Assembly: GCA_036383955.1 (NCBI GenBank)
Contig: DASVNH010000241.1
Location: 24,261 to 88,260 of the forward strand
DNA length: 64,000 nucleotides
Source: Planctomycetota bacterium
GTDB taxonomy: Bacteria; Planctomycetota; MHYJ01; JACPRB01
Direction of reading: 5' to 3'
The first letter of the stretch is position 1; each line of letters begins with the position of its first letter. The notes beneath the pieces were generated by a model. That model was not told the DNA's origin. It was given only the letters and a program-made list of their open reading frames with translations, and made no database searches. This document shows positions 856-35,525 of the stretch, piece after piece. The translations under genes were made by a program, and so were the position numbers.

Positions 856-2046
856 TTACTTGGTCGCGGTGTTCCGCAGCGCGGAGACGCACTGGCCGTT
901 GGACCTCAGGTACTCGCCCTGAAGCCAGCTGTACAGGGGCGGCACCTTGGTCGACTCCCCCGGCTCCGCCAGGCCGAACGCGACGGCCAGCGTGGTCGGT
1001 CCGAGCGGAAGCTCGCCCAGGGGGCTCTTCGTGGCGACGTGGGTCCCGCGCACCAGGACGTCGAAGCGCGTCACGACATCCCCCTTCGCCTCGAGGACGC
1101 CCCTCAGCTGGGCCTCGAAGCGGCGATTGCCCGCTTCCTCGAGGAGCAGGCTCCCTTCCAGAAGGAACGTCTTGCCGTCGGGGATGATCTGGATCCGCAG
1201 GCTCTTGAGGTGTTCCGGCATCCAGCGGGCGTGAACGCCCCGCGTGTTGTCGACGAGGTGGAAGCGGATCAGGCGTTCCACGAAAGAGTTCGGCAGGGAG
1301 CCCTTGGCCAGCTCCCGCGCCTCGACCTGGGTGGCCCAGAGGCGGTCCTTGCCCACGGCGTCGCGGATCATCTGGTAGCGCGACAGATTCGTGGCCTGCC
1401 ACTTGGCTTCGAGGAGCTTCGCGGCCACCTCGATCACCAGGCCTCCCTCCGGCGGCAGGGGGGTCGCGTTGCGGTCCACCTTGGAACGGTCGAGAGGAGC
1501 GACGTCCGCGGGAGGCTTGTACGCCTCGTGGACCTCCTTCAGGTTGCGCGTCATGGTCCCGTTGTCGGGGCGTGGGTACATCCAGCCCTTCAGCAGGGTG
1601 CCGTCGGGCGCGCAGATGTAGTAGCCCTGCTTCGAGTGCTTCGGCTCCGCCCGCTGGTTGACCACTTTCCGGAAGAAGTCGCCGGCCGCGTCGCGCGCTT
1701 TCAGCATCTCCGTGACGCTGGGCGCGTAGGCGACGTAATGGTCGCGCAGGAGCTTCAGGGTCTCGTCGTTCGCGAAGGTGGACTCACGGTCCACCACGCC
1801 GTTGTTTCAGGTGCAGCCGAGGGTCTGGCCGTCCATCGCCCAGATGAAGATCGGCTTCTTCTGCTGGATGGCGGTCTCCCGGGCGTCGTGCAGGTCGGTC
1901 TTCCAGGGAACCGACTCCCACTTCTCCTTCGCGCGCAGCTGGGCGTGGATCGACGTGAACTCCTCGGGCGTGAGAGGCGCGGGATCCTGTCCCCAGGCCA
2001 GGGCTCCGCCGGCGGCGGCCAGGCACAGCATCAGGGCGTGCTTCAT
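856..2046 (-). CDS. Candidate selenoprotein: secreted thioredoxin-fold (DUF255/Thioredoxin_7-like) protein with in-frame UGA (C-T-U motif)
   Basis: The last 80 codons of track ORF 1807..3813 start at ATG 2046 with signal peptide MKHALMLCLAAAGGALAWG. They share a minus-strand frame with ORF 856..1797, separated only by TGA 1809-1807 plus 3 codons. The downstream ORF has only a GTG start and no SD. The thioredoxin-fold signature spans the TGA (..KKPIFIWAMDGQTLGC-T-U-NNGVVDRESTFANDETLKLLRDHYV..). If the TGA is a true stop, this call becomes 1807..2046 plus 856..1797. Confidence 0.6.
1777..1809 (-). promoter_or_regulatory. In-frame UGA plus SECIS-like stem-loop
   Basis: UGA is at 1809-1807. After 11 nt comes GGUGGAC-CGUGA-GUCCACC (1795..1777): 7 perfect bp and a 5-nt G-containing loop 19-23 nt downstream of the UGA. 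The stem extends by GCG/CGC across a small internal loop. Confidence 0.55.
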
Positions 2047-2114
2047 CGCGGTTCTCCTCAGCATCCGCGAGCATTTCACGGAGACCGCCCGGATTGGCCC
2101 GAAAAAAACGGAAT

Positions 2115-8378: not shown

Positions 8379-9980
8379 CTAGCGGCCCGCCTCCAGGAAG
8401 GCCTTCCAGCGCGCCCAGTCTAATCCGAAGTCCTTCTCGGTGGCCGCGCGCAGGGTCTCCGCGATCGCGACTTCCCCCGCCGACGGCGTCTGGGTCGTGT
8501 CGACCTCCGGCAGCCACTCCAGGGCGTCCGCGGGTTTCGCCTTCAGCGCGGCCCGCAGCAGGAGGACGTAGCCGTGCGTCGACTTGCCCTCCTTCACGAC
8601 GGCGGCCGGCGAGGGACGTCGGTCGGGAGAAACCGCCTCGTTGCCGCGCGCCTTGAGGATCGCGAAGAGGTCCATGTCCCGGGAAAAGTTCGGCTCGTCC
8701 TTGTCCTTGGAAAAGCGCCGCGCCAGATCCTTGGACGGGATCGTGACGGTGCGGACGAGGTTCTCGCGGATGACCCAGCCGTAGGCGGCTTCCCCCACGC
8801 CGAGGCCTTGCTTCAGATCCTGGCAGGCCGCGTCGAGGAACTGCTCGTGGCGGTCCTTCGGATACGCGTCGGTGAAGAGGAAGTCGCGGTCGCGCAGGGC
8901 CTGCCCGAGGTAGTTGATGAAGTTCGAGCGGGCCGGCAGCTTCGCTTCGAAGAGGGCGTAGAAGGGCGTGGTCCGCGCCGCGTGGCTCTTGCGCGCGGCG
9001 ACGTAGGCCTTGGCGCCCTTGTCGGCTTCCTTGAGCGCCTCTTTGACCGTGTCGACGTCCAAAGGCTCGACCTTGACGCCGGAGGGGAAGGGCGGCTTGA
9101 GCGCGCCGGCCTTGAACAAGGTCGCGAGCGTCGCCTCCACCGCGAACGGCTCGAGGTAGCCGCCTCGGTAGGAAGCGAGCGCCCCGTCGCGCCTTCCATA
9201 GTCCTCGACGGCCAGGCTCGCGGAACGGGCGGTCTCCAGGTCCTTGGCCCGCCACGCGAGCAGGAATTGGGCTTCCAGCACGCGGGGATGCAGCCAGTGC
9301 CCGAGGAGGAAGTCGACGGCCTCCGGGCTCTTCAGCAGGCGCTCTTCGATCAGGCGCCGGGCGGCCTTGGCGACGCGAGGGGCGTCGATCCGCGGCGGCC
9401 CCGCGGGAGCGGCCAAGCCCTCCAGGATGTTCACGAACGCCGGGAGGATCAAGCGGGATTGATTGATGGCGCGATGCTGGAAGCAGGCGCGGACCAGCGG
9501 GTCGGGCTCGTGCTTCTCCAGCCACTCGAGGCTCCAGAGGTCGAAGGCCCGCACGGGGCAGTCCCACTTGTTCCGCTTGAGGGCCTCTTCGACCGCCTCC
9601 GTCGCGGACTTCCAATAGTCGGGGTTCTGCCGCGCGTTCAGGAGGATCCACCGCGCCCGGAAGAGCGACGCGTGAGAGGAGCCGGGAAGGGCTTCTTCGA
9701 CGGCCTTCACCGCCGCCTCATCCGCGGGCGTCGCGGACGCGCGCAGGACGGCCGCGAGGGGGCTGGGGCCGTCGAGGGTTCCGCCCTTGAACGCGGCGGC
9801 CCAGAGCTGGAGCTGGGCGTCGTTCGGCGCCGCCGCGAGCTGCTCGTCGGCGAGCTTTCGCAGCTTCTCGACGCCCTTGTCGAGGCGCTGGGCGGGCGTC
9901 GGCGGCGGAGGAGGTGGGGGCGGCGGCTCGGAGCAGGAGGCGATCAGCAGGACCCAGAGGGGAAGCGATCGGATCCTCAT
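8379..9980 (-). CDS. Hypothetical lipoprotein with polyproline linker
   Basis: Signal/lipobox MRIRSLPLWVLLIASC followed by SEPPPPPPPPPTP. Largely helical 533-aa body with no recognised domain. Confidence 0.65.
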   Translation of the reverse strand: MRIRSLPLWVLLIASCSEPPPPPPPPPTPAQRLDKGVEKLRKLADEQLAAAPNDAQLQLWAAAFKGGTLDGPSPLAAVLRASATPADEAAVKAVEEALPGSSHASLFRARWILLNARQNPDYWKSATEAVEEALKRNKWDCPVRAFDLWSLEWLEKHEPDPLVRACFQHRAINQSRLILPAFVNILEGLAAPAGPPRIDAPRVAKAARRLIEERLLKSPEAVDFLLGHWLHPRVLEAQFLLAWRAKDLETARSASLAVEDYGRRDGALASYRGGYLEPFAVEATLATLFKAGALKPPFPSGVKVEPLDVDTVKEALKEADKGAKAYVAARKSHAARTTPFYALFEAKLPARSNFINYLGQALRDRDFLFTDAYPKDRHEQFLDAACQDLKQGLGVGEAAYGWVIRENLVRTVTIPSKDLARRFSKDKDEPNFSRDMDLFAILKARGNEAVSPDRRPSPAAVVKEGKSTHGYVLLLRAALKAKPADALEWLPEVDTTQTPSAGEVAIAETLRAATEKDFGLDWARWKAFLEAGR

Positions 9981-10013
9981 GGTCGTCGAGGGTAGACCAT
10001 CCGGAGCGCCGGG

Positions 10014-11255
10014 TCAACGCTCGTCGACGCAGTAGAGGTGCGTGTTCGAGCGGATGAGCAGGCGGCCGTCGGCCGTCACCGGCGCGGCGTGGAAGAGGCT
10101 GCGGTCGCCGAGCTCGTTCGTGGCGAGCAGCTGGAACGTCGGCGAGGCCGCCACGACGTACGTCCGCCCGCCGCGGCCCACGTAGTAGATCTTCCCTTCG
10201 GCGAGGATCGGCGACGCGTAGACCTGGTCGCCCCGCCCCAGCCGCTCCTGGTAGACGATCTTGCCGGTGGCCGCCTCGGCGCAGAAGGCGATGCCCTGGC
10301 TGTCGCTCGCGAAGTAGAGATGCCCGTCGTGGTAGAGCGGCGAGGGGACGTTGGAGTTCTTCTCCGCGATCCAGAGGCGGTGGGTCGCCGTCACGTCGCC
10401 CCGGCCGCCGAGCCGCACCGCCAGCGCGCCGCCCGACCGCCCGCCGATCCAGTACGAGACGCCGTCCGCGACCACGGCCGTCGGCACCATGTACCACGGG
10501 ATGTTCGTCTCGCAGGACCAGAGCTCCTTGCCCGTCTTCGGATCCAGGCCGAGGATCTTGCCCAGGATCGCCACGAGCAGCTCCGTCGCGCCTTCCTTGG
10601 TCTTCGCCAGCACCGGCGTATTCCACGACTCCTTGATGCCGCGCGTCCGCCAGGCTTCCTTGCCGGTCGCGACGTCCAGCGCGACCAGCGACTGGCTCTC
10701 CACGCTCGCGTTGATGATCACCGTGTTCTCGAAGAGCAGCGGCGAGGCCGCCGAGCCCCAGCCGTTGAGGGCGTCGCCGACGTCCGCCGTCCACAGCTCC
10801 TTGCCCGTCAGGTCGAAGGCCTTCGCGCCCGACTTCCCGAAGAAGCAGTAGATCCGCTTGCCGTCGCTCGCCGGCGTGCTCGACGCGTAGCCGTGCTCGT
10901 CGCGGATCTTCGGCTGCTCGGGGAGCTTGGCCTCGACGTCCTTCGTCCACAGCAACTTGCCGCTCTTCCGCTCGAGGCAGACGAGATGCCGCTTGAGCGC
11001 GTTCATGTCGCCCGGCGCGCCGGGCACGTTGAAGCCGCTGTAGGCCGTCAGGTAGATCTTGTCGCCGACGACGATGGGGCTCGACGTCCCCGGCCCCGGG
11101 AGCGCCGTCTTCCAGACGACGTTCTGCGTCGCGCTCCACGTGGTGGGGAGCGTCTTCTCGGCGCTCACGCCCTGCGCGGGCCCGCGGAACTGCGACCAGT
11201 CCTGCGGGAGCCCTTCGACGGAGCTCAGGGCAAGGAGCGTGAGGCAGATGTTCAT
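10014..11255 (-). CDS. PQQ-like beta-propeller repeat protein (BamB-like fold), secreted
   Basis: Signal peptide, then DWSQFRGP...VVWK...SSPIVVGDKIYL and repeated G.xLW / xDGxxYxxxxxGxxxAxD blades. Confidence 0.8.
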   Translation of the reverse strand: MNICLTLLALSSVEGLPQDWSQFRGPAQGVSAEKTLPTTWSATQNVVWKTALPGPGTSSPIVVGDKIYLTAYSGFNVPGAPGDMNALKRHLVCLERKSGKLLWTKDVEAKLPEQPKIRDEHGYASSTPASDGKRIYCFFGKSGAKAFDLTGKELWTADVGDALNGWGSAASPLLFENTVIINASVESQSLVALDVATGKEAWRTRGIKESWNTPVLAKTKEGATELLVAILGKILGLDPKTGKELWSCETNIPWYMVPTAVVADGVSYWIGGRSGGALAVRLGGRGDVTATHRLWIAEKNSNVPSPLYHDGHLYFASDSQGIAFCAEAATGKIVYQERLGRGDQVYASPILAEGKIYYVGRGGRTYVVAASPTFQLLATNELGDRSLFHAAPVTADGRLLIRSNTHLYCVDER

Positions 11256-11425
11256 GTGGAGATTGTAGCTTTACGCCGCCGCGCCGGACGTCGTCGCAAC
11301 AACTTCAGCACCTCATTGGTCGTCCCGCAAAGCGGGCAGCGGATCGCGCGGGGAGCCCGATCGTGCCGCAGGGGAAGCCGGGCCTCGCAGGCGCGGCAGA
11401 GCACCAGGATCAGATCGCGTCGCAT
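11252..11425 (-). CDS. Small zinc-ribbon protein (57 aa), tentative
   Basis: Internal Met of track ORF 11252..11503: MRRDLILVLCRACEARLPL...IRCPLCGTTNEV plus a basic tail. It has two CxxC pairs. Its stop overlaps the start of the downstream propeller gene (ATGA). Confidence 0.4.
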   Translation of the reverse strand: MRRDLILVLCRACEARLPLRHDRAPRAIRCPLCGTTNEVLKLLRRRPARRRKATIST

Positions 11426-23313: not shown

Positions 23314-24801
23314 ATGGCCGACCCGTTCCTCGAGGCCCGCGGCCTCGCCAAGCGCTTCCCCGGCGTCCGGGCCCTCGACGGCGTCGACCTCACGGTCGGC
23401 CGCGGCGAAACCGTGGCCGTCATCGGCGAGAACGGCGCGGGCAAGAGCACCCTCATGAAGATCCTGGCGGGCGTGCAAACGCCCGACGCCGGCGAGATCC
23501 GCGTCGAGGGACGGCCGGTCCGGATCGACTCCGTCCGCGCCGCCGAGAAGCTCGGCATCGCCCTCATCCACCAGGAGCTGAACCTCTGCGACAACCTGGA
23601 CATCGCCGCCAACATCTTCCTCGGCCGCGAGCCGCGCCGGGGGCCCTTCGTCGACCGCGTGAAGATGGAGATCGACGCCGCGGAGCTCGTCGAGCGGGTC
23701 GGCCTCGACGCCTACCCTCGCACGCTCGTGAGCACGCTCTCCATCGGCCGCCAGCAGATGGTCGAGATCGCCAAGGCCCTCTCGGTCGACGCGAAGCTGC
23801 TGATCATGGACGAGCCGACCTCCTCCCTCTCGCAGCGCGAGACGGAGCAGCTGTTCCGGGTGATCCGCGACCTCAAGAGCCGCGGCGTCGGCGTCGTTTA
23901 CATCTCGCACCGCCTCGGCGAGGTGAAGGAAGTCGCCGACCGCGTCGTGGTGCTGCGCGACGGCCGCAATTCCGGCGGTCTCGAGAAGAGCCAGATCGAG
24001 CACGCGGCCATGGTGAAGCTGATGGTCGGCCGCGAGCTCACCCAGCTCTTCCCGCATCAGGCGCGCCCGCCGGGCGAGCCGGCGCTGGAGGTCGACGCCC
24101 TCCGCACCGCCGCGCATCCGCGCCACGCGCTGTCGCTCTCGCTGCGAGCCGGCGAGATCGTGGGCGTGGCGGGCCTCGTGGGCTCGGGGCGGACCGAGCT
24201 GCTGACGACGCTGTTCGGCATCGACCGCGCGCGGGGCGGGACGATCCGCGTGGGCGGCCGGGCCGTCGAGTTCAAGCGGCCGCTCGACGCCATCCGCGCG
24301 GGCCTGGCGCTCGTTCCCGAGGACCGCAAGGAGCAGGGGCTGTTCCTGGAGATGGCGCTGCGCGACAACCTGAGCGTCGCGTGGATGCGGGGCCGGGGGC
24401 TCTTCGTCGACCGCGCGGCGGAGCGGACGATGTCGGAGGAGTCGATCGCCAAGCTGCGCGTGAAGACGCCGAACGACCGTCAGCTCGCGCAGTTCCTCTC
24501 GGGCGGGAACCAGCAGAAGATCGTGCTGGGGAAGTGGCTGGCGCTGAATCCCCGCGTGCTGCTCCTCGACGAGCCGACCCGGGGCGTCGACGTGGGCGCC
24601 AAGCAGGAGATCTACAGACTGATGGACGAGCTGTCGGCGAAGGGCGTCGCGATCCTCTTCGTGTCGAGCGATCTGGAGGAGATCCTGGGGATGTCGGACC
24701 GCGCGCTGGTGATGCACCAGGGGCAGATCGCGGGAGAGCTGCCCCGGGCGAAGCTGAGCGAGGAGGCGGTCATGCTGCTGGCGACGGGGACGGCCGCGTG
24801 A
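23314..24801 (+). CDS. Sugar ABC transporter ATP-binding protein (tandem ATPase, RbsA-like)
   Basis: Two Walker A / signature sets (GENGAGKST, LSIGRQQ, LIMDEPT; second half GLVGSGRTE, LSGGNQQK, LLLDEPTRGVD). Confidence 0.9.
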   Translation: MADPFLEARGLAKRFPGVRALDGVDLTVGRGETVAVIGENGAGKSTLMKILAGVQTPDAGEIRVEGRPVRIDSVRAAEKLGIALIHQELNLCDNLDIAANIFLGREPRRGPFVDRVKMEIDAAELVERVGLDAYPRTLVSTLSIGRQQMVEIAKALSVDAKLLIMDEPTSSLSQRETEQLFRVIRDLKSRGVGVVYISHRLGEVKEVADRVVVLRDGRNSGGLEKSQIEHAAMVKLMVGRELTQLFPHQARPPGEPALEVDALRTAAHPRHALSLSLRAGEIVGVAGLVGSGRTELLTTLFGIDRARGGTIRVGGRAVEFKRPLDAIRAGLALVPEDRKEQGLFLEMALRDNLSVAWMRGRGLFVDRAAERTMSEESIAKLRVKTPNDRQLAQFLSGGNQQKIVLGKWLALNPRVLLLDEPTRGVDVGAKQEIYRLMDELSAKGVAILFVSSDLEEILGMSDRALVMHQGQIAGELPRAKLSEEAVMLLATGTAA

Positions 24802-31102: not shown

Positions 31103-32842
31103 ATGGCGCGCAAGGACGATCCTCGGATGGATCTGCTCCTGGGGCGTGTGGCCCTGGAGCGGGGCCTCATTTCCGAGGCCCAGCTGCGCGACGCCCTGTC
31201 GGAGCGCGCGCTCAGCGTCGCCCGGGGGCGCAAGGTGCCGCGGCCCATCGGCGCCATCCTCGCCGCCAAGAAGCAGCTGAGCGACGCCCAGGTCGTCGAG
31301 CTCACTCGCGAGATCGAGGGCCGGATCGAGAAAGAGGCGGAGGGCCGGCGGAAGGACGCCTTCCTCGGGCAGATCCTCATCGACGCCGACCTCGTCGCGC
31401 CCAAGCATGTCGAGGACTGCCTCTTCGACCAGGCCGAGCGCTGGAAGGAAGGGGAGACCCCGCTGCCGCGGCTCGGCGACCTCCTCGTCCTCAAGGGCTA
31501 CGCGACGCGCGAGGACGTCGCCCAGGCCCTCGCGCTCCAGAAGTCCATGGTCCAGGTCTGCGCGAAATGCCGGCGCGAATGCAGCCTGTCGGACGACGTC
31601 GACCGCTGCCCGGTCTGCGGCGGCGCGTTCAAGCCCCGCGCCGAGTCGGCCGTGATCCCGCCCAGACCGGTCGTCGCTCCCGCGGCTCCGGCGCCGGACG
31701 TCGCCACCCTCGGCCGCTACCAGCTCCGCGCCACGCTGGAAAAGAGCGACGCGGCGGTCCTGTATGATGCCCACGACGCCGAGCTCGACCGCCGCGTCTC
31801 CCTCCGGGTCCTCGAGCGGAACCGGCCGGAGGACGTCGAACGCGCCCGCGCCGCGGCCGCCCTCAAGCATCCGAACATCGCCGCCATCTACGACTCGGGG
31901 CTGCTCGACGGCCGGCCCTATGTGGCGGCGGAGCGCGTGGAGGGCCGCTCGCTGGGCGAGCTGAGGAAGTCGGGAGCCCTCAAGGCGCGGCAGGAGATCC
32001 GGGCGCTGCGGGACGTCGCCCTCGCGCTCGACCACGCCCACCAGCGGGGGCTGGTCCACCGCGACCTGAATCCGGAGAGCGTGCGTTTCGGCGCCCAGGA
32101 CCGCCCGCTGATCGTCGATCTCTGGGCGGGCGCGGCCGCGAGTCCCGCGCACATGAGCCCCGAGCGGGCGCGCGGCGACCGCGACCTCGGGCCGGCGGCG
32201 GACGTCTGGTCCCTCGGCGTCCTTCTCTACGAGGCGCTGGCGGGCGCGCCGCCCTTCCACGGCGACACGCCGGAGTCGACGCTCTCGAAGGTGATGTGCG
32301 AATCGCCGGCGCCGCCCTCGGCGGCCGCGCCGTCGAAGGCGGGCCGCGCCGTGTATCGCCCGCTGGAGACGCTGTGCCTGCGCGCGCTGGAAAAGAAGCC
32401 GTCCCGGCGTCCGGCCTCCGCGAAGGCCTTCGCGGACGAGCTTTCGGCCTGGCTCAAGGGCGAGGCCGAAGCGGCGCCGCGGCCGAAGCGGGTCGACCGC
32501 CGGCGTCGCTGGATCGCGATCGCGGCCGGCGCGCTGGTCGGCGTCGCGGGCCTGATCGCGGCCTTCGCGCTGGCGACGAGGGAGAGCCGGACGGACCGCA
32601 CGCTGCGGAAGGCGGCGGAGTACATGGCGGAGGGGCATCCCGACGCCGCCCTGCAGCTTTACGACCGGATCCTCGAGCGCGAGCCCGGGGAGCCGCGGGC
32701 CCTGACCGGGCGCGAAGCCGCCCGGGCGCGGATCGACGCGGACGAAGCGCGGGTGAAGCTCGAGGAGACCCAGGCCGAGCTCGAACGCGTGCGCCGGGAC
32801 GCGGACCGCCCCCGCCGTCCCGAGGCCCAGGCCCGCGACTGA
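31103..32842 (+). CDS. Ser/Thr-kinase-like protein (predicted pseudokinase or atypical kinase) with MshEN-like repeats, zinc ribbon, TM helix and C-terminal helical region
   Basis: Hanks-type fold markers are present: HPNIAAIYD, VHRDLNPESV, MSPER, DVWSLGVLLYEALAG.PPF. The G-loop, beta3 Lys, catalytic-loop Lys/Asn and DFG are substituted. CxxC..CxxC at aa 153-172. TM segment WIAIAAGALVGVAGLIAAFAL. Confidence 0.8.
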   Translation: MARKDDPRMDLLLGRVALERGLISEAQLRDALSERALSVARGRKVPRPIGAILAAKKQLSDAQVVELTREIEGRIEKEAEGRRKDAFLGQILIDADLVAPKHVEDCLFDQAERWKEGETPLPRLGDLLVLKGYATREDVAQALALQKSMVQVCAKCRRECSLSDDVDRCPVCGGAFKPRAESAVIPPRPVVAPAAPAPDVATLGRYQLRATLEKSDAAVLYDAHDAELDRRVSLRVLERNRPEDVERARAAAALKHPNIAAIYDSGLLDGRPYVAAERVEGRSLGELRKSGALKARQEIRALRDVALALDHAHQRGLVHRDLNPESVRFGAQDRPLIVDLWAGAAASPAHMSPERARGDRDLGPAADVWSLGVLLYEALAGAPPFHGDTPESTLSKVMCESPAPPSAAAPSKAGRAVYRPLETLCLRALEKKPSRRPASAKAFADELSAWLKGEAEAAPRPKRVDRRRRWIAIAAGALVGVAGLIAAFALATRESRTDRTLRKAAEYMAEGHPDAALQLYDRILEREPGEPRALTGREAARARIDADEARVKLEETQAELERVRRDADRPRRPEAQARD

Positions 32843-32857
32843 AAACCGGACCCGGAC

Positions 32858-32877
32858 CCGGAACCGACCTGTTCCGG
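32858..32877. terminator. Short hairpin between convergent genes
   Basis: CCGGAAC-CGACCT-GTTCCGG (32858..32877) sits between TGA 32840-32842 and the TAA (32880-32878) of the minus gene. It is preceded by tandem CCGGACC units. No U-tract. Confidence 0.3.
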
Positions 32878-33882
32878 TTATTGCGGGAGGACCGGGATGA
32901 CGGCCGCCCGCGGGTCCCGCTTGTCGCCCGTCAGCGCGTGGAGGAAGAGCTCGAGGTCCTTCTTCTCGGCCTCGTCGAGCTTGAAGGGCAGCATGAAGAT
33001 CGACATCTTCGGGTGCTTCTCTTTCTCGCCCACGACCTTCTCGTAATGGTCGATCACCTCGCGCAGGGTCTTGAGCGAGCCGTCGTGCATGTAGGGCGCC
33101 GTCAGCGCCGCGTTCCGGATCGTCGGCGTGCGGAAGGCGCCGGTCTCTTTCTCGTCCTTCGAGACGGCGACGCGGCCCTGGTCGTCGCCCGGCAGCCCGA
33201 TGTTGTGGTAGCGCTTGTCCATGAAGGCCGGGCCCGAGTGGCAGACGGCGCAGCGCGCCTTGCCGGTGAAGAGCTCGAAGCCCCGCTTCTGCGCGTCCGT
33301 CATCGCCTTGTCGTCGCCGCGCGCCCAGCGGTCGAAGGGGGAGTCGAGGTCCACCACCGTCCGCTCGAACGCGGCGATCGCCATCGCGATCCGGTCGAAC
33401 GTCACCTCGCCGCCGAAGACCTCGTTGAAGCGCTTCGCGTAGCCGGGGATCCCGGCGACGGTGGACGTCGCCTTCTCCGCCGACCCGCCCATCTCGGCCG
33501 CGCTCTGGATCGGACCCTTGGCCTGATCCTCGAGCGTCGCCGCCCGGCCGTCCCAGAACTGCGTCTCGTAGTACGCCGCGTTCAGGACCGAGGGCGACGA
33601 GCGGCCCAGCTTCGCGCCGTTGATGCCGACGCCCTTCGCCAGGCCGTCGGCCCAGCCGAGCGCGGGGTTGTGGCAGGTCGCGCAGGAGATCGTCCCGTTG
33701 CCCGAGAGCCGCGGATCGTAGTAGAGCATCCGCCCCAGCTCGACCTTCGCGTCGCTCATCGCGTTGTCCTTCGGCACGGGCGGCGCCGGCAGCGGCCCGA
33801 GGAAGGCGGGCAGGTCGCGGGACTCCTGCTTCTGCTGGGGGGCCGCCGCCAGCAGCAGCAGGGCGAGGGGGGCGAAGCGCAT
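32878..33882 (-). CDS. Di-haem cytochrome c peroxidase (CCP/MauG family)
   Basis: Signal peptide. Two haem motifs, CATCHNPALGWADG and CAVCHSGPAF. Also FRTPTIRN and APYMHDGS. GGAG SD 5 nt upstream of the ATG. Confidence 0.9.
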   Translation of the reverse strand: MRFAPLALLLLAAAPQQKQESRDLPAFLGPLPAPPVPKDNAMSDAKVELGRMLYYDPRLSGNGTISCATCHNPALGWADGLAKGVGINGAKLGRSSPSVLNAAYYETQFWDGRAATLEDQAKGPIQSAAEMGGSAEKATSTVAGIPGYAKRFNEVFGGEVTFDRIAMAIAAFERTVVDLDSPFDRWARGDDKAMTDAQKRGFELFTGKARCAVCHSGPAFMDKRYHNIGLPGDDQGRVAVSKDEKETGAFRTPTIRNAALTAPYMHDGSLKTLREVIDHYEKVVGEKEKHPKMSIFMLPFKLDEAEKKDLELFLHALTGDKRDPRAAVIPVLPQ

Positions 33883-33915
33883 GCTGTCTCCTTCGTTGGG
33901 TGGACCGACATCCTA

Positions 33916-33944
33916 TTCAACGCTCCGGCCGGACGGAATATAAT
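33916..33944 (+). promoter_or_regulatory. Putative sigma70-like promoter, leaderless arrangement
   Basis: TTCAAC (33916..33921), 17 nt, perfect TATAAT (33939..33944), 7 nt, ATG 33952. No SD in the 7 nt. Confidence 0.45.
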
Positions 33945-33951
33945 CCGCGCC

Positions 33952-34503
33952 ATGGCAGACGACTTCTTCCGCCTCCCGGCCGGCCTGCCCGTCCCCGTCC
34001 AGGACGGCGCCTGCGATCATCTGCCCGGGAAATCCCTGCCGCGGCTGTCGCTCCCCTCGACGTCCGGCGGACGCGTGGAGCTCGACGCCCCCGGCCGCGC
34101 GATCTACTTCGTCTATCCGCGGACCGGAGTGCCCGGCCAGCCGACGCCCGAGGGCTGGAACGACATCCCCGGCGCGCGCGGCTGAACGCCCCAGTGCGCG
34201 GGCTTCGGGACCGAAGCCTCCAGATTCGCGCGCCTGGGCTGGACGATCTACGGCCTGAGCTCCCAGGAGACGGCCGTCCAGAAGGAGGTCGTCGACCGCC
34301 TCGGCCTCCCCTACGAGATCCTCTCCGACCGCGAGTTCGCGCTGGCCGACGCGCTCGCGCTGCCGACTTTCGTCTTCCAGGGGGTGAAGCTGCACACGCG
34401 GCTTGTCCTCGCGGTGGAGGCGGGTCGGATCGTGAAGGTCTTCTATCCCGTCTTTCCGCCCGACCGGAGCGCCGCGGACGTCCTCGCCTGGCTGGAGCGC
34501 TAG
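33952..34503 (+). CDS. Candidate selenocysteine-containing peroxiredoxin (AhpC/TSA-redoxin family), UGA at the peroxidatic position
   Basis: The tail of track ORF 32296..34185 (MADDFFRLPAGLP...IYFVYPRTGVPG...WNDIPGARG) stops at TGA 34183-34185. The same frame continues without a stop for 105 codons to TAG 34501-34503 (TPQCAGFGTEASRFARLGWTIYGLSSQETAVQKEVVDRLGLPYEILSD...). This reconstitutes the G-[C/U]-TPQ-C active site and the rest of the redoxin fold. Confidence 0.75.
34183..34218 (+). promoter_or_regulatory. In-frame UGA plus SECIS-like stem-loop
   Basis: UGA 34183-34185, then 15 nt, then GGCUUCG-GGAC-CGAAGCC (34201..34218): 7 perfect bp with a G-rich tetraloop about 25 nt from the UGA. 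GCGCG (34196..34200) could pair with CGCGC (34227..34231) as a lower stem. Confidence 0.6.
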
Positions 34504-35525
34504 CGGAACAGGGCGGCGGGCGGGATCTTCTGCCGCGGCAGCTCGGGGCCTTCCCAGTAGACCTCGAGCACCGTGTTCCCGCCCTCCTGGAAATACGTCA
34601 GCGCGATCGCGTGCTTGCCGGGCTTCAGCGCGATCTGGCCGGCCATCTCGACGGCCCCATGGTGGTGGTCGTTGTTCACCACCTCCAGGTTGCCGATGTA
34701 GAGCTTCGAGCCGTCGTTCGACAGCGTCCGGAACGTGTAGACGCCCTCCCGCGGGACGTCGAGATACCCGCTGAACCGCAGCCCGAAGTGCGTCTCGCGC
34801 CCGCGGTGGACGTTGGAAAACTCGGCCGTCGCGCCGCTCTTGACGGGCTTGAGGGCCTTGAAGTCGGGGAGCGACGTCCATTGCCCTTCGTAGTAGTCGA
34901 AGGCGAGGCCGGCGGACGTCGACGCCGGATTCTCCGGCGCTCGGGGCTTCAGGGCGCCGCGGGCGAACGGCGCGGGGAGGGCGGCTTCGTCGGCGACGGC
35001 CTCCAGCGGCGCGGGGAGGGCCTTGAGCGTGGCGGCGTCCATCGGGGGGATCTTGGCGTTCGGCTCGGGCGCCTTGGCCTTGCCGGCGAGGACGCGGCCC
35101 ACGAGGTCGGCGAGCTCGGGCGCGGGGCCGACGAACGTCCGGTTCATGCGGATCTCGATGTGGGTGAACGTCCACCAGGCCTTCTCGGGCGGCGCGCCGG
35201 CGTCGCCGTAGAGCTGGAAGAAGAAGCGGTTGAGGTAGACCTCGGCCTGGCGGCCCGCGTTGTAGAAGATCAGCGCGGGGGCGCCCACGACGAGATGCTT
35301 GCGGATGGCGTCGGGGTGAAAGGCCTGGCCGCCGCTGAAGTTCATGCGGATGACCGCGTAGGCGCAGGAGCCCTTCAGCGAGCGCGTCACCTTCATGAAG
35401 GCGACGTGGTTCGTGGCGTCGACCTTGTCGATCACGCCCTCGGCGATCACCTCGGACTCGTTGAGGACCTGCTGAAGGGGATAGATCGCCTCGACGTAAG
35501 GCAGGCAGAACAGCAGCAGGGCCAC
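34500..35525 (-). CDS. PA14-domain protein with N-terminal signal anchor
   Basis: GTG 35525 lies 7 nt after GGAGG. N-terminus (V)ALLLFCLPYVEA. C-terminal PA14-type domain (GLAFDYYEGQW...GLRFSGYLDVPREGVYTFRTLSNDGSKLYIGN...LTYFQEGG..LEVYWEGP). The upstream part of track ORF 34500..35846 was discarded. Confidence 0.7.
   Translation of the reverse strand: MALLLFCLPYVEAIYPLQQVLNESEVIAEGVIDKVDATNHVAFMKVTRSLKGSCAYAVIRMNFSGGQAFHPDAIRKHLVVGAPALIFYNAGRQAEVYLNRFFFQLYGDAGAPPEKAWWTFTHIEIRMNRTFVGPAPELADLVGRVLAGKAKAPEPNAKIPPMDAATLKALPAPLEAVADEAALPAPFARGALKPRAPENPASTSAGLAFDYYEGQWTSLPDFKALKPVKSGATAEFSNVHRGRETHFGLRFSGYLDVPREGVYTFRTLSNDGSKLYIGNLEVVNNDHHHGAVEMAGQIALKPGKHAIALTYFQEGGNTVLEVYWEGPELPRQKIPPAALFR

Follow-up and report, generated by a model that had tools for sequence, protein, structure and literature searches.

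The replacement of the peroxidatic Cys of a peroxiredoxin (Prx) by selenocysteine (Sec) has been known since 2001 from PrxU of Eubacterium acidaminophilum (Söhling et al. 2001, as cited in PMC13188914), and 'Peroxiredoxin (Prx), PF00578, TxxU' belongs to the more frequent selenoprotein families of bacteria (PMC13188914, with counts given in PMC1794560 and PMC5029168), with several Cys-to-Sec conversions inferred for Prx and many Cys homologues (PMC1794560). The same 2026 catalogue lists a Redoxin family (PF08534) with the motif UxxC (Global Ocean Sampling, GOS, 'Prx-like 3'), Prx-like thiol:disulfide oxidoreductases (PF00578) with UxxC or UxxU, the cd02970 UxxS family and Prx-SUH with CxxU (PMC13188914). 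Here we describe a gene located at positions 33952-34503 of a 64,000-bp stretch (hereafter the window) of contig DASVNH010000241.1 from a Planctomycetota metagenome-assembled genome (MAG; assembly GCA_036383955.1, contig positions 24,261 to 88,260). In GenBank it is represented by a 77-residue 'hypothetical protein' (HEX7901016.1), which is only a stub ending at an in-frame UGA, and judging by its sequence the gene very probably codes for a full 183-residue BCP/PrxQ-like peroxiredoxin with Sec, encoded by this UGA, at the catalytic Cys position. We put the probability that it is a genuine Sec-encoding gene at about 0.85.

As in PrxU and the TxxU family, the predicted product belongs to the thioredoxin-fold Prx superfamily, has UGA (Sec) in place of the peroxidatic Cys and a candidate Sec insertion sequence (SECIS) within the coding sequence (CDS) just downstream. 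It differs from them in having A-R-G-U instead of T/S-x-x-U, about 15 extra residues ahead of the active site, BCP/PrxQ structures as its nearest relatives and a putative resolving Cys placed 4-5 residues after Sec on the same helix. With the BCP/PrxQ proteins (BcpB 5epf, Dot5 2a4v, Bcp1 3drn and PrxQ 5iiz), which are the best sequence-profile and structural matches, the family shares G-C-T at the start of helix α2, a second Cys at +5 (in the Cys forms), F-R-D and the catalytic Arg (R150), whereas Sec in place of Cys and the insertion set it apart, and the window protein additionally has its second Cys at +4 and has lost the R-D. The Redoxin UxxC and Prx-like UxxC/UxxU families have the Pfam superfamily, the location of Sec in a redox motif and discovery by Sec/Cys homology in common with it, but their motif is the thioredoxin-type U-x-x-C, while the window protein has U-T-P-Q-C (Ux3C), its relatives have Ux4C, and Sec occupies the peroxidatic position of Prx.

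None of the motifs catalogued in 2026 (PMC13188914) matches A-R-G-U-T-P-[QH]-x-C, and literature searches returned no paper on this motif or on Sec use in Planctomycetota specifically. The kind of protein is thus well known, and the subfamily appears to be uncatalogued; the exchange of Sec and Cys at the peroxidatic residue of Prx is well established, and current understanding is not overturned.

Reading frame, homologues and active site

The frame opens with ATG 33952 on the forward strand, meets TGA 34183-34185 and then stays open for 105 further codons to TAG 34501-34503, exactly as an earlier note on this DNA, made from the sequence alone, had read it. The program-made list of open reading frames (ORFs) contains only 32296..34185, i.e. 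the N-terminal part, and no ORF of at least 40 aa for the 3′ part, because the first ATG, GTG or TTG in frame there is codon 146; for the same reason the 3′ part is not a separate gene. Logan gene calls likewise give only the 77-aa stub. The G+C content of the window is 71%, and the 3′ part has G+C fractions of 0.70, 0.45 and 0.93 at the first, second and third codon positions (GC1/2/3), which is the composition of coding sequence in such a genome.

The read-through product was analysed with Cys placed at the UGA (position 78). Pfam Redoxin (PF08534) covers residues 25-176 and therefore spans the UGA, with a score of 35.9 bits against a cut-off of 26.6, and AhpC-TSA (PF00578) scores 31.3 bits against a cut-off of 26; the C-terminal 105 residues match Redoxin even when taken alone (E = 2e-6). 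A protein search returned about 8000 homologues, and the best 120 of them, to which all the counts for Cys forms given below refer, are full-length proteins of 184-223 aa with coverage of 96-100%, E-values down to 2e-67 and an identity of 53-63% where reported, those with names being labelled 'peroxiredoxin'. All of these 120 have Cys at the UGA column, which is also invariant in an alignment of 41 Cys homologues, and the motif of the Cys forms is I-P-G-A-R-G-C-T-P-Q-S-C-A-F-R-D. The segment IPGARG-C-TPQ, given in the earlier note for Cys-type relatives, is thus present in 120/120 Cys forms. The motif given there needs one correction: the family norm is C-TPQ-S-C, with the second Cys at +5, and the window has it at +4.

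In a comparison of the family profile with solved structures, BCP/PrxQ-type peroxiredoxins were the sole solved relatives, namely BcpB from M. tuberculosis (5epf, E = 1.4e-13), yeast Dot5, Sulfolobus Bcp1 and Xanthomonas PrxQ. The UGA column is aligned to the Cys of P-G-C-T in 5epf and Dot5, the established peroxidatic Cys of this family, in agreement with the position proposed for the UGA beforehand. Arg150 ('kRltlv'), a column that is invariant in the homologue alignments, is aligned to the catalytic Arg of 5epf ('vkRtTfVid'). As a proxy for the window protein, a model of the Cys homologue P0001 (63% identical) was made with AlphaFold (AF2), with a mean confidence (pLDDT) of 87 and a predicted template modelling score (pTM) of 0.86. 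In this model the Cys equivalent to U78 lies immediately before helix 84-91 (α2), and a Foldseek search with it gave BCP/PrxQ proteins as top matches (TM 0.82-0.83). The Pfam, structure-profile and model matches all agree with the proposal that the downstream 105 codons are the remainder of a Redoxin/AhpC-TSA fold. The family-specific insertion of about 15 residues (…GxPGxPxPxGW[DN]xIPGAR…) is located between Y-P-R-T-G-x-P-G and G-C-T.

Recurrence of the UGA and the downstream hairpin

Genome and metagenome collections were scanned for the degenerate pattern P-G-A-R-G-TGA-T-P-[QH], and each match was translated. This resulted in 42 genome and 70 metagenome matches. In 24 contigs a TGA at this very codon is flanked on either side by sequence that encodes a genuine homologue; the other 88 (40/42 from genomes and 48/70 from metagenomes) were discarded after translation as chance matches in GC-rich DNA. 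Among the sources of the contigs with the TGA form are MAGs of Planctomycetota (L030, JAHFOZ01) and Methylomirabilota (L032, JBKPCB01) as well as soil and water metagenomes. At this position the orthologues have either Cys or TGA; it was a sense codon other than Cys or Sec that the earlier note had named as a finding against its reading.

The closest TGA relative, L105, comes from a separate Joint Genome Institute (JGI) sample and shares 87% nucleotide identity with the window gene, with the same frame and stop position. The ratio of nonsynonymous to synonymous substitution rates (dN/dS) between the two is 0.26 for the part preceding the UGA and 0.22 for the part following it, with dS of 0.34. 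Taken with the preserved frame and stop, the latter value shows that purifying selection maintains the 3′ part as a coding sequence and that this is not a dead gene.

The hairpin GGCUUCG-GGAC-CGAAGCC (34201-34218) pointed out in the earlier note is present. Its distance from the UGA is 15 nt, or 22 nt when counted to the loop, and it has a free energy (ΔG) of -12.0 kcal/mol. In the bacterial SECIS (bSECIS) consensus of the bSECISearch model, as summarised in a 2026 review (PMC13188914), a stem of 4-16 bp carries a loop of 3-9 nt with G in its first two positions, at a distance of 16-37 nt from the UGA and with ΔG of at most -7.5 kcal/mol. The window hairpin agrees with it in loop, stem, G position, spacing and energy, having a 4-nt loop starting with G-G, a stem of 7-8 bp, a distance of 22 nt and -12 kcal/mol. 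Within the window only 2.0% of positions are followed, at 16-37 nt, by a hairpin with at least 7 perfect bp and a loop beginning with G, which gives the chance expectation. The extended predicted structure has a minimum free energy of -31.4 kcal/mol (z = -2.0 versus shuffles), compared to -21.2 for the best single hairpin; the upper stem-loop alone is backed by comparison with other sequences, and the lower stems are predictions.

The bSECIS scan was run on codon-aligned sequences of 18 distinct Sec forms and eight Cys forms, including those nearest to each Sec clade. A stem-loop within these limits is present in 16/18 Sec forms and in 0/8 Cys forms, and the median ΔG is -11.9 kcal/mol for the former and -2.8 for the latter (Mann-Whitney p = 9e-5, with kinship among the sequences ignored). 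In most Sec forms the hairpin is GGUUGCGG-GUA/GUU-CCGCGACC, and its loop begins 17 nt downstream of the UGA. The stem in this register arises from Gly codons (GGU, GGG), where the Cys forms encode Ser (+4) and Ala (+6). The window and L105 possess another hairpin located 5 nt further downstream, GG(G)CUUCG-GGAC/GAUC-CGAAGCC, with the loop 22 nt after the UGA; that of L105 has the same stem with the loop GAUC and -10.4 kcal/mol. Compared to the published consensus, what is peculiar is that one protein family uses two registers, with hairpins built from different codons.

Three metagenome contigs, L047, L055 and L058, are identical around the UGA and read U-TPQ-C-C-GFRD. In the usual register they form a weak hairpin (5 bp, loop CUU), and a ΔG of -12.4 kcal/mol is attained only by an interrupted structure whose loop, CGAC, lies 23 nt downstream of the UGA. 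Since the TGA recurs in three samples it is real, and the SECIS of these sequences may be atypical.

On the model of the known bacterial pathway, SelB·GTP·Sec-tRNASec would bind the apical part of the in-CDS stem-loop 34200-34219 as the ribosome nears UGA 34183, and SelB would deliver Sec at the UGA, 22 nt upstream of the loop, in competition with release factor 2. The product would be a 183-residue selenoprotein with a divergent BCP/PrxQ-type (atypical 2-Cys) peroxiredoxin fold and Sec as the peroxidatic residue. By analogy with Prx chemistry, U78 at the start of α2, with its selenolate activated by the nearby Arg150, would attack the peroxide and be converted to selenenic acid, which Cys82, one helical turn away on the same helix, would resolve to an intramolecular selenenylsulfide, and a thioredoxin-type reductant would regenerate the enzyme.

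Proposed selenocysteine insertion and alternative explanations

Six independent lines of sequence evidence argue that UGA 34183-34185 is a Sec codon: its recurrence, the purifying selection, a SECIS specific to the Sec forms, a second gene of the same kind in the window, the fact that these two are the only such UGAs there, and a standard code together with a reproducible base. TGA is the commonest stop in the window, where it ends 17/37 coding-like ORFs, so the code is standard and the UGA of the redoxin gene is an exception. A sweep of the window for in-frame TGAs flanked by coding-like sequence gave only 34183-34185, 1807-1809 and one trivial gene junction. TGA 10014-10016 (reverse strand) was rejected as a Sec candidate, since it terminates a BamB/PQQ_2-like gene (10017-11270); the gene that comes after it in that frame (8382-10013) has a Met of its own shortly downstream.

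The second gene encodes a secreted protein of about 396 aa, for which Pfam gave no match, with the motif …KPIFIWAMDGQTLG-C-T-U-NNG…. As the earlier note had proposed for UGA 1807-1809, it is an independent candidate: the UGA occupies the column of a conserved Cys, and a SECIS-like hairpin of its own follows it (GGUGGAC-CGUGA-GUCCACC, loop at a distance of 18 nt). In an exhaustive search with the post-UGA part as query, most of the 398 homologues were gene calls starting right after the UGA position, which is the footprint of truncated selenoproteins, and G-C-T-C stands at the UGA column in three homologues of full length (P0126, P0157 and P0169). As most homologues start after this position, the second gene probably belongs to a widely mis-annotated, uncharacterised selenoprotein family, and it would be independent evidence that the organism decodes UGA as Sec.

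Several points weigh against Sec insertion or against the function proposed for the product. Neither SelA, SelB nor SelD was detected with Pfam among the approximately 30 ORFs of the window, and ARAGORN found no tRNA or tRNA-Sec there and none in 25 Sec-form loci either; the Sec competence of the organism is therefore supported only indirectly, the search for the machinery being confined to the 64-kb window. The hairpin statistics are not phylogenetically independent, evidence for covariation in the stem is thin, and both the sequence shared by L047, L055 and L058 and another Sec form, L103, have no convincing SECIS. Rfam assigned no SECIS or other family to the hairpin, either on the whole window at the gathering threshold or on 34100-34320 by E-value, the scans of the window giving only chance miRNA-type matches; since bacterial SECIS elements are poorly covered in Rfam, this result is uninformative. 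The lost R-D and the lack of Cys at +5 in the window and L105 could reflect functional drift. No contiguous PxxxT/SxxC(U) motif was found in the family, which has Ala at -3 and no Pro at -7, although T58 or T79 may stand in for the missing Thr in three dimensions. The NCBIfam equivalogs give the window protein 23.5 bits for BCP (NF006960, cut-off 140) and 19 bits for PrxQ (NF053650, cut-off 260), its relatives score up to 55 bits, far below both cut-offs, and no NCBIfam model covers the subfamily. With the interrupted PxxxTxxC motif and these scores, the protein is called BCP/PrxQ-like and not a canonical member, and peroxidase activity, which we infer from sequence, is not guaranteed.

If the organism had no Sec pathway, the UGA might still be read through, either by near-cognate Cys or Trp suppression or by stimulation from the hairpin, since downstream structure can stimulate stop-codon read-through. 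The absence of Sec machinery from the window is compatible with this, but the hairpins fit the SelB-type constraints (loop G, 16-37 nt) in two registers, the UGA stands exactly on the redox-catalytic Cys, the classic site of Sec/Cys exchange, and the window contains a second gene with the same combination of a UGA on a Cys and a hairpin. Inefficient suppression would also be odd for a Cys enzyme with TGC one mutation away, and we regard read-through of this kind as unlikely.

A pseudogene produced by a recent TGC/TGT to TGA change, with only the 77-residue stub made and the downstream part decaying, is in our view very unlikely. Such a change requires one substitution from TGC, it would agree with the stub in GenBank and Logan and with the loss of the conserved R-D, and L103, which is placed among the Cys forms and has no good SECIS, implies that isolated nonsense changes or errors do occur in the family. 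A decaying 3′ part would hardly be expected to keep a GC3 of 0.93 and a dN/dS equal to the upstream value, nor would the TGA, frame and stop be retained in L105 at dS of 0.34, the TGA be found at the exact codon in about 24 contigs of at least two phyla, or a SECIS-type hairpin accompany the TGA forms and not the TGC/TGT forms.

Even though the source is a MAG, a sequencing or assembly error or an alternative code with UGA as a sense codon is extremely unlikely, the former because the same TGA is present in the Logan assembly of run SRR10695391 (L113) and recurs in L105, an independent contig that has diverged by 13% and comes from a different JGI sample, and the latter because TGA terminates so many coding-like ORFs of the window and just two in-frame TGAs lie within coding sequence.

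Lineage features and genomic context

In the neighbour-joining tree the Sec forms, which is how we read the UGA genes, fall into three groups: a Methylomirabilota-type clade with 14 distinct sequences, a small Planctomycetota-type clade comprising the window, L105, L030 and L057, and the singleton L103 nested among Cys forms. The last of these (JACXTT010310563.1, TGA at 0-based position 1090) keeps the Cys-form sequence TPHSCAYRD, and its best hairpin has -6.8 kcal/mol; it may be a sequencing error, a fresh nonsense mutation or dead allele, or a nascent Sec form.

The best 120 Cys forms have [S/T/A/N]-C at +4/+5, with the second Cys only at +5, followed by F/Y-R-D/N, and most Sec forms also have the second Cys at +5. 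The residues at +4/+5 are C-C in L030 and L047, C-L in L057 and C-A in the window and L105, the last three having Cys only at +4. A pair of indels (Q-CAGF versus QSCA-F) was considered and rejected because the intermediates CC (L030, L047) and CL (L057) show an ungapped path of substitutions, by which C-x4-C would have been converted to U-x3-C. The R-D of F-R-D is replaced by G-T or G-S in the window and L105 only (window codons F85-G86-T87-E88, 34204-34215), and is kept in the other Sec forms and in the best 120 Cys forms except for two that read F-R-N. The codons that replace it (GGG ACC) form the loop and 3′ arm of the relocated hairpin in both, which looks like a SECIS constraint overriding a conserved protein motif.

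Put together, these features can be read as an uncatalogued, insertion-bearing BCP-like Sec subfamily, IPGARG-U-TP[QH]-x-C, with Sec gained more than once, an active-site helix reshaped by the SECIS and perhaps no classical peroxidase activity, a combination for which we see an even chance. Sec would have arisen from Cys ancestors in the Methylomirabilota-type clade, in the Planctomycetota-type clade and in the singleton; replacement of Ser+4 and Ala+6 by Gly would have built the hairpin of the 17-nt register, which would then have moved 5 nt downstream in the window lineage at the cost of the invariant R-D, and the Cys at +4, which the whole Planctomycetota-type clade has, together with the loss of that at +5 (window, L105 and L057) would lead to a U-x3-C selenenylsulfide ring.

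With about 8000 Cys forms and a few dozen Sec forms the family represents a natural experiment in how an in-ORF SECIS remodels the active-site helix when Se replaces S, the signs of remodelling being the two hairpin registers, the stem-making Gly substitutions, the lost R-D and the shift of the putative resolving Cys. Planctomycetota and Methylomirabilota are environmentally abundant, mostly uncultured phyla, and stub annotations of this kind would hide antioxidant capacity and selenium dependence in them.

Table 1 Coordinates of the candidate Sec-redoxin gene, its elements and the other features discussed (window positions)
Feature	Position	Strand	Details
Complete candidate selenoprotein CDS	33952..34503	+	183 codons + TAG; BCP/PrxQ-like, Redoxin family; Sec would be residue 78
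In-frame UGA, proposed Sec codon (U78) at the peroxidatic-Cys position	34183..34185	+	Cys column in homologues; recurrent TGA
Cys82 codon TGC, candidate resolving Cys	34195..34197	+	+4 from Sec (family norm +5)
Arg150 codon CGG	34399..34401	+	Invariant Arg aligned with the catalytic Arg of BCP peroxiredoxins
SECIS-like upper stem-loop	34200..34219	+	7 Watson-Crick bp (34201-07/34212-18) and a closing G·U; loop GGAC 34208-34211
Extended predicted structure	34188..34239	+	Lower stem 34194-34200/34227-34233; outer stem 34188-91/34236-39; 8-nt internal loop
Second candidate selenoprotein gene	856..2064	-	UGA 1807-1809, motif G-C-T-U-N-N-G, SECIS-like hairpin
Intergenic region between the divergent redoxin and cytochrome c peroxidase genes	33883..33951	.	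69 bp; TATAAT 33939-33944
Di-haem cytochrome c peroxidase (CCP/MauG, PF03150), HEX7901015.1	32878..33882	-	Divergent neighbour

The intergenic region upstream of the gene contains a perfect TATAAT, 7 nt upstream of ATG 33952, the position of which suggests a leaderless or near-leaderless transcript, with any regulatory role being putative. A scan of 33700-34700 for promoters and terminators found no full sigma-70 site, no matching -35 element and no terminator.

The divergent cytochrome c peroxidase (CCP) and the Sec-redoxin could form a pairing for peroxide defence; the CCP neighbour is not conserved in the other Sec-form loci. When the window neighbours (CCP, PA14, YdjY and kinase) were compared with all Sec- and Cys-form loci, only generic Ser/Thr-kinase matches were obtained, and no gene neighbourhood was conserved. 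A Ser/Thr protein kinase is encoded upstream of the Sec-redoxin both in L057 (1249-1881) and in the window (31103-32842), the two being 40% identical, which may be remnant synteny in the Planctomycetota-type clade or may merely reflect the abundance of kinases. Other genes of the window include PSCyt1/PSCyt2/PSD1, DUF7133, Laminin_G_3 and ThuA.

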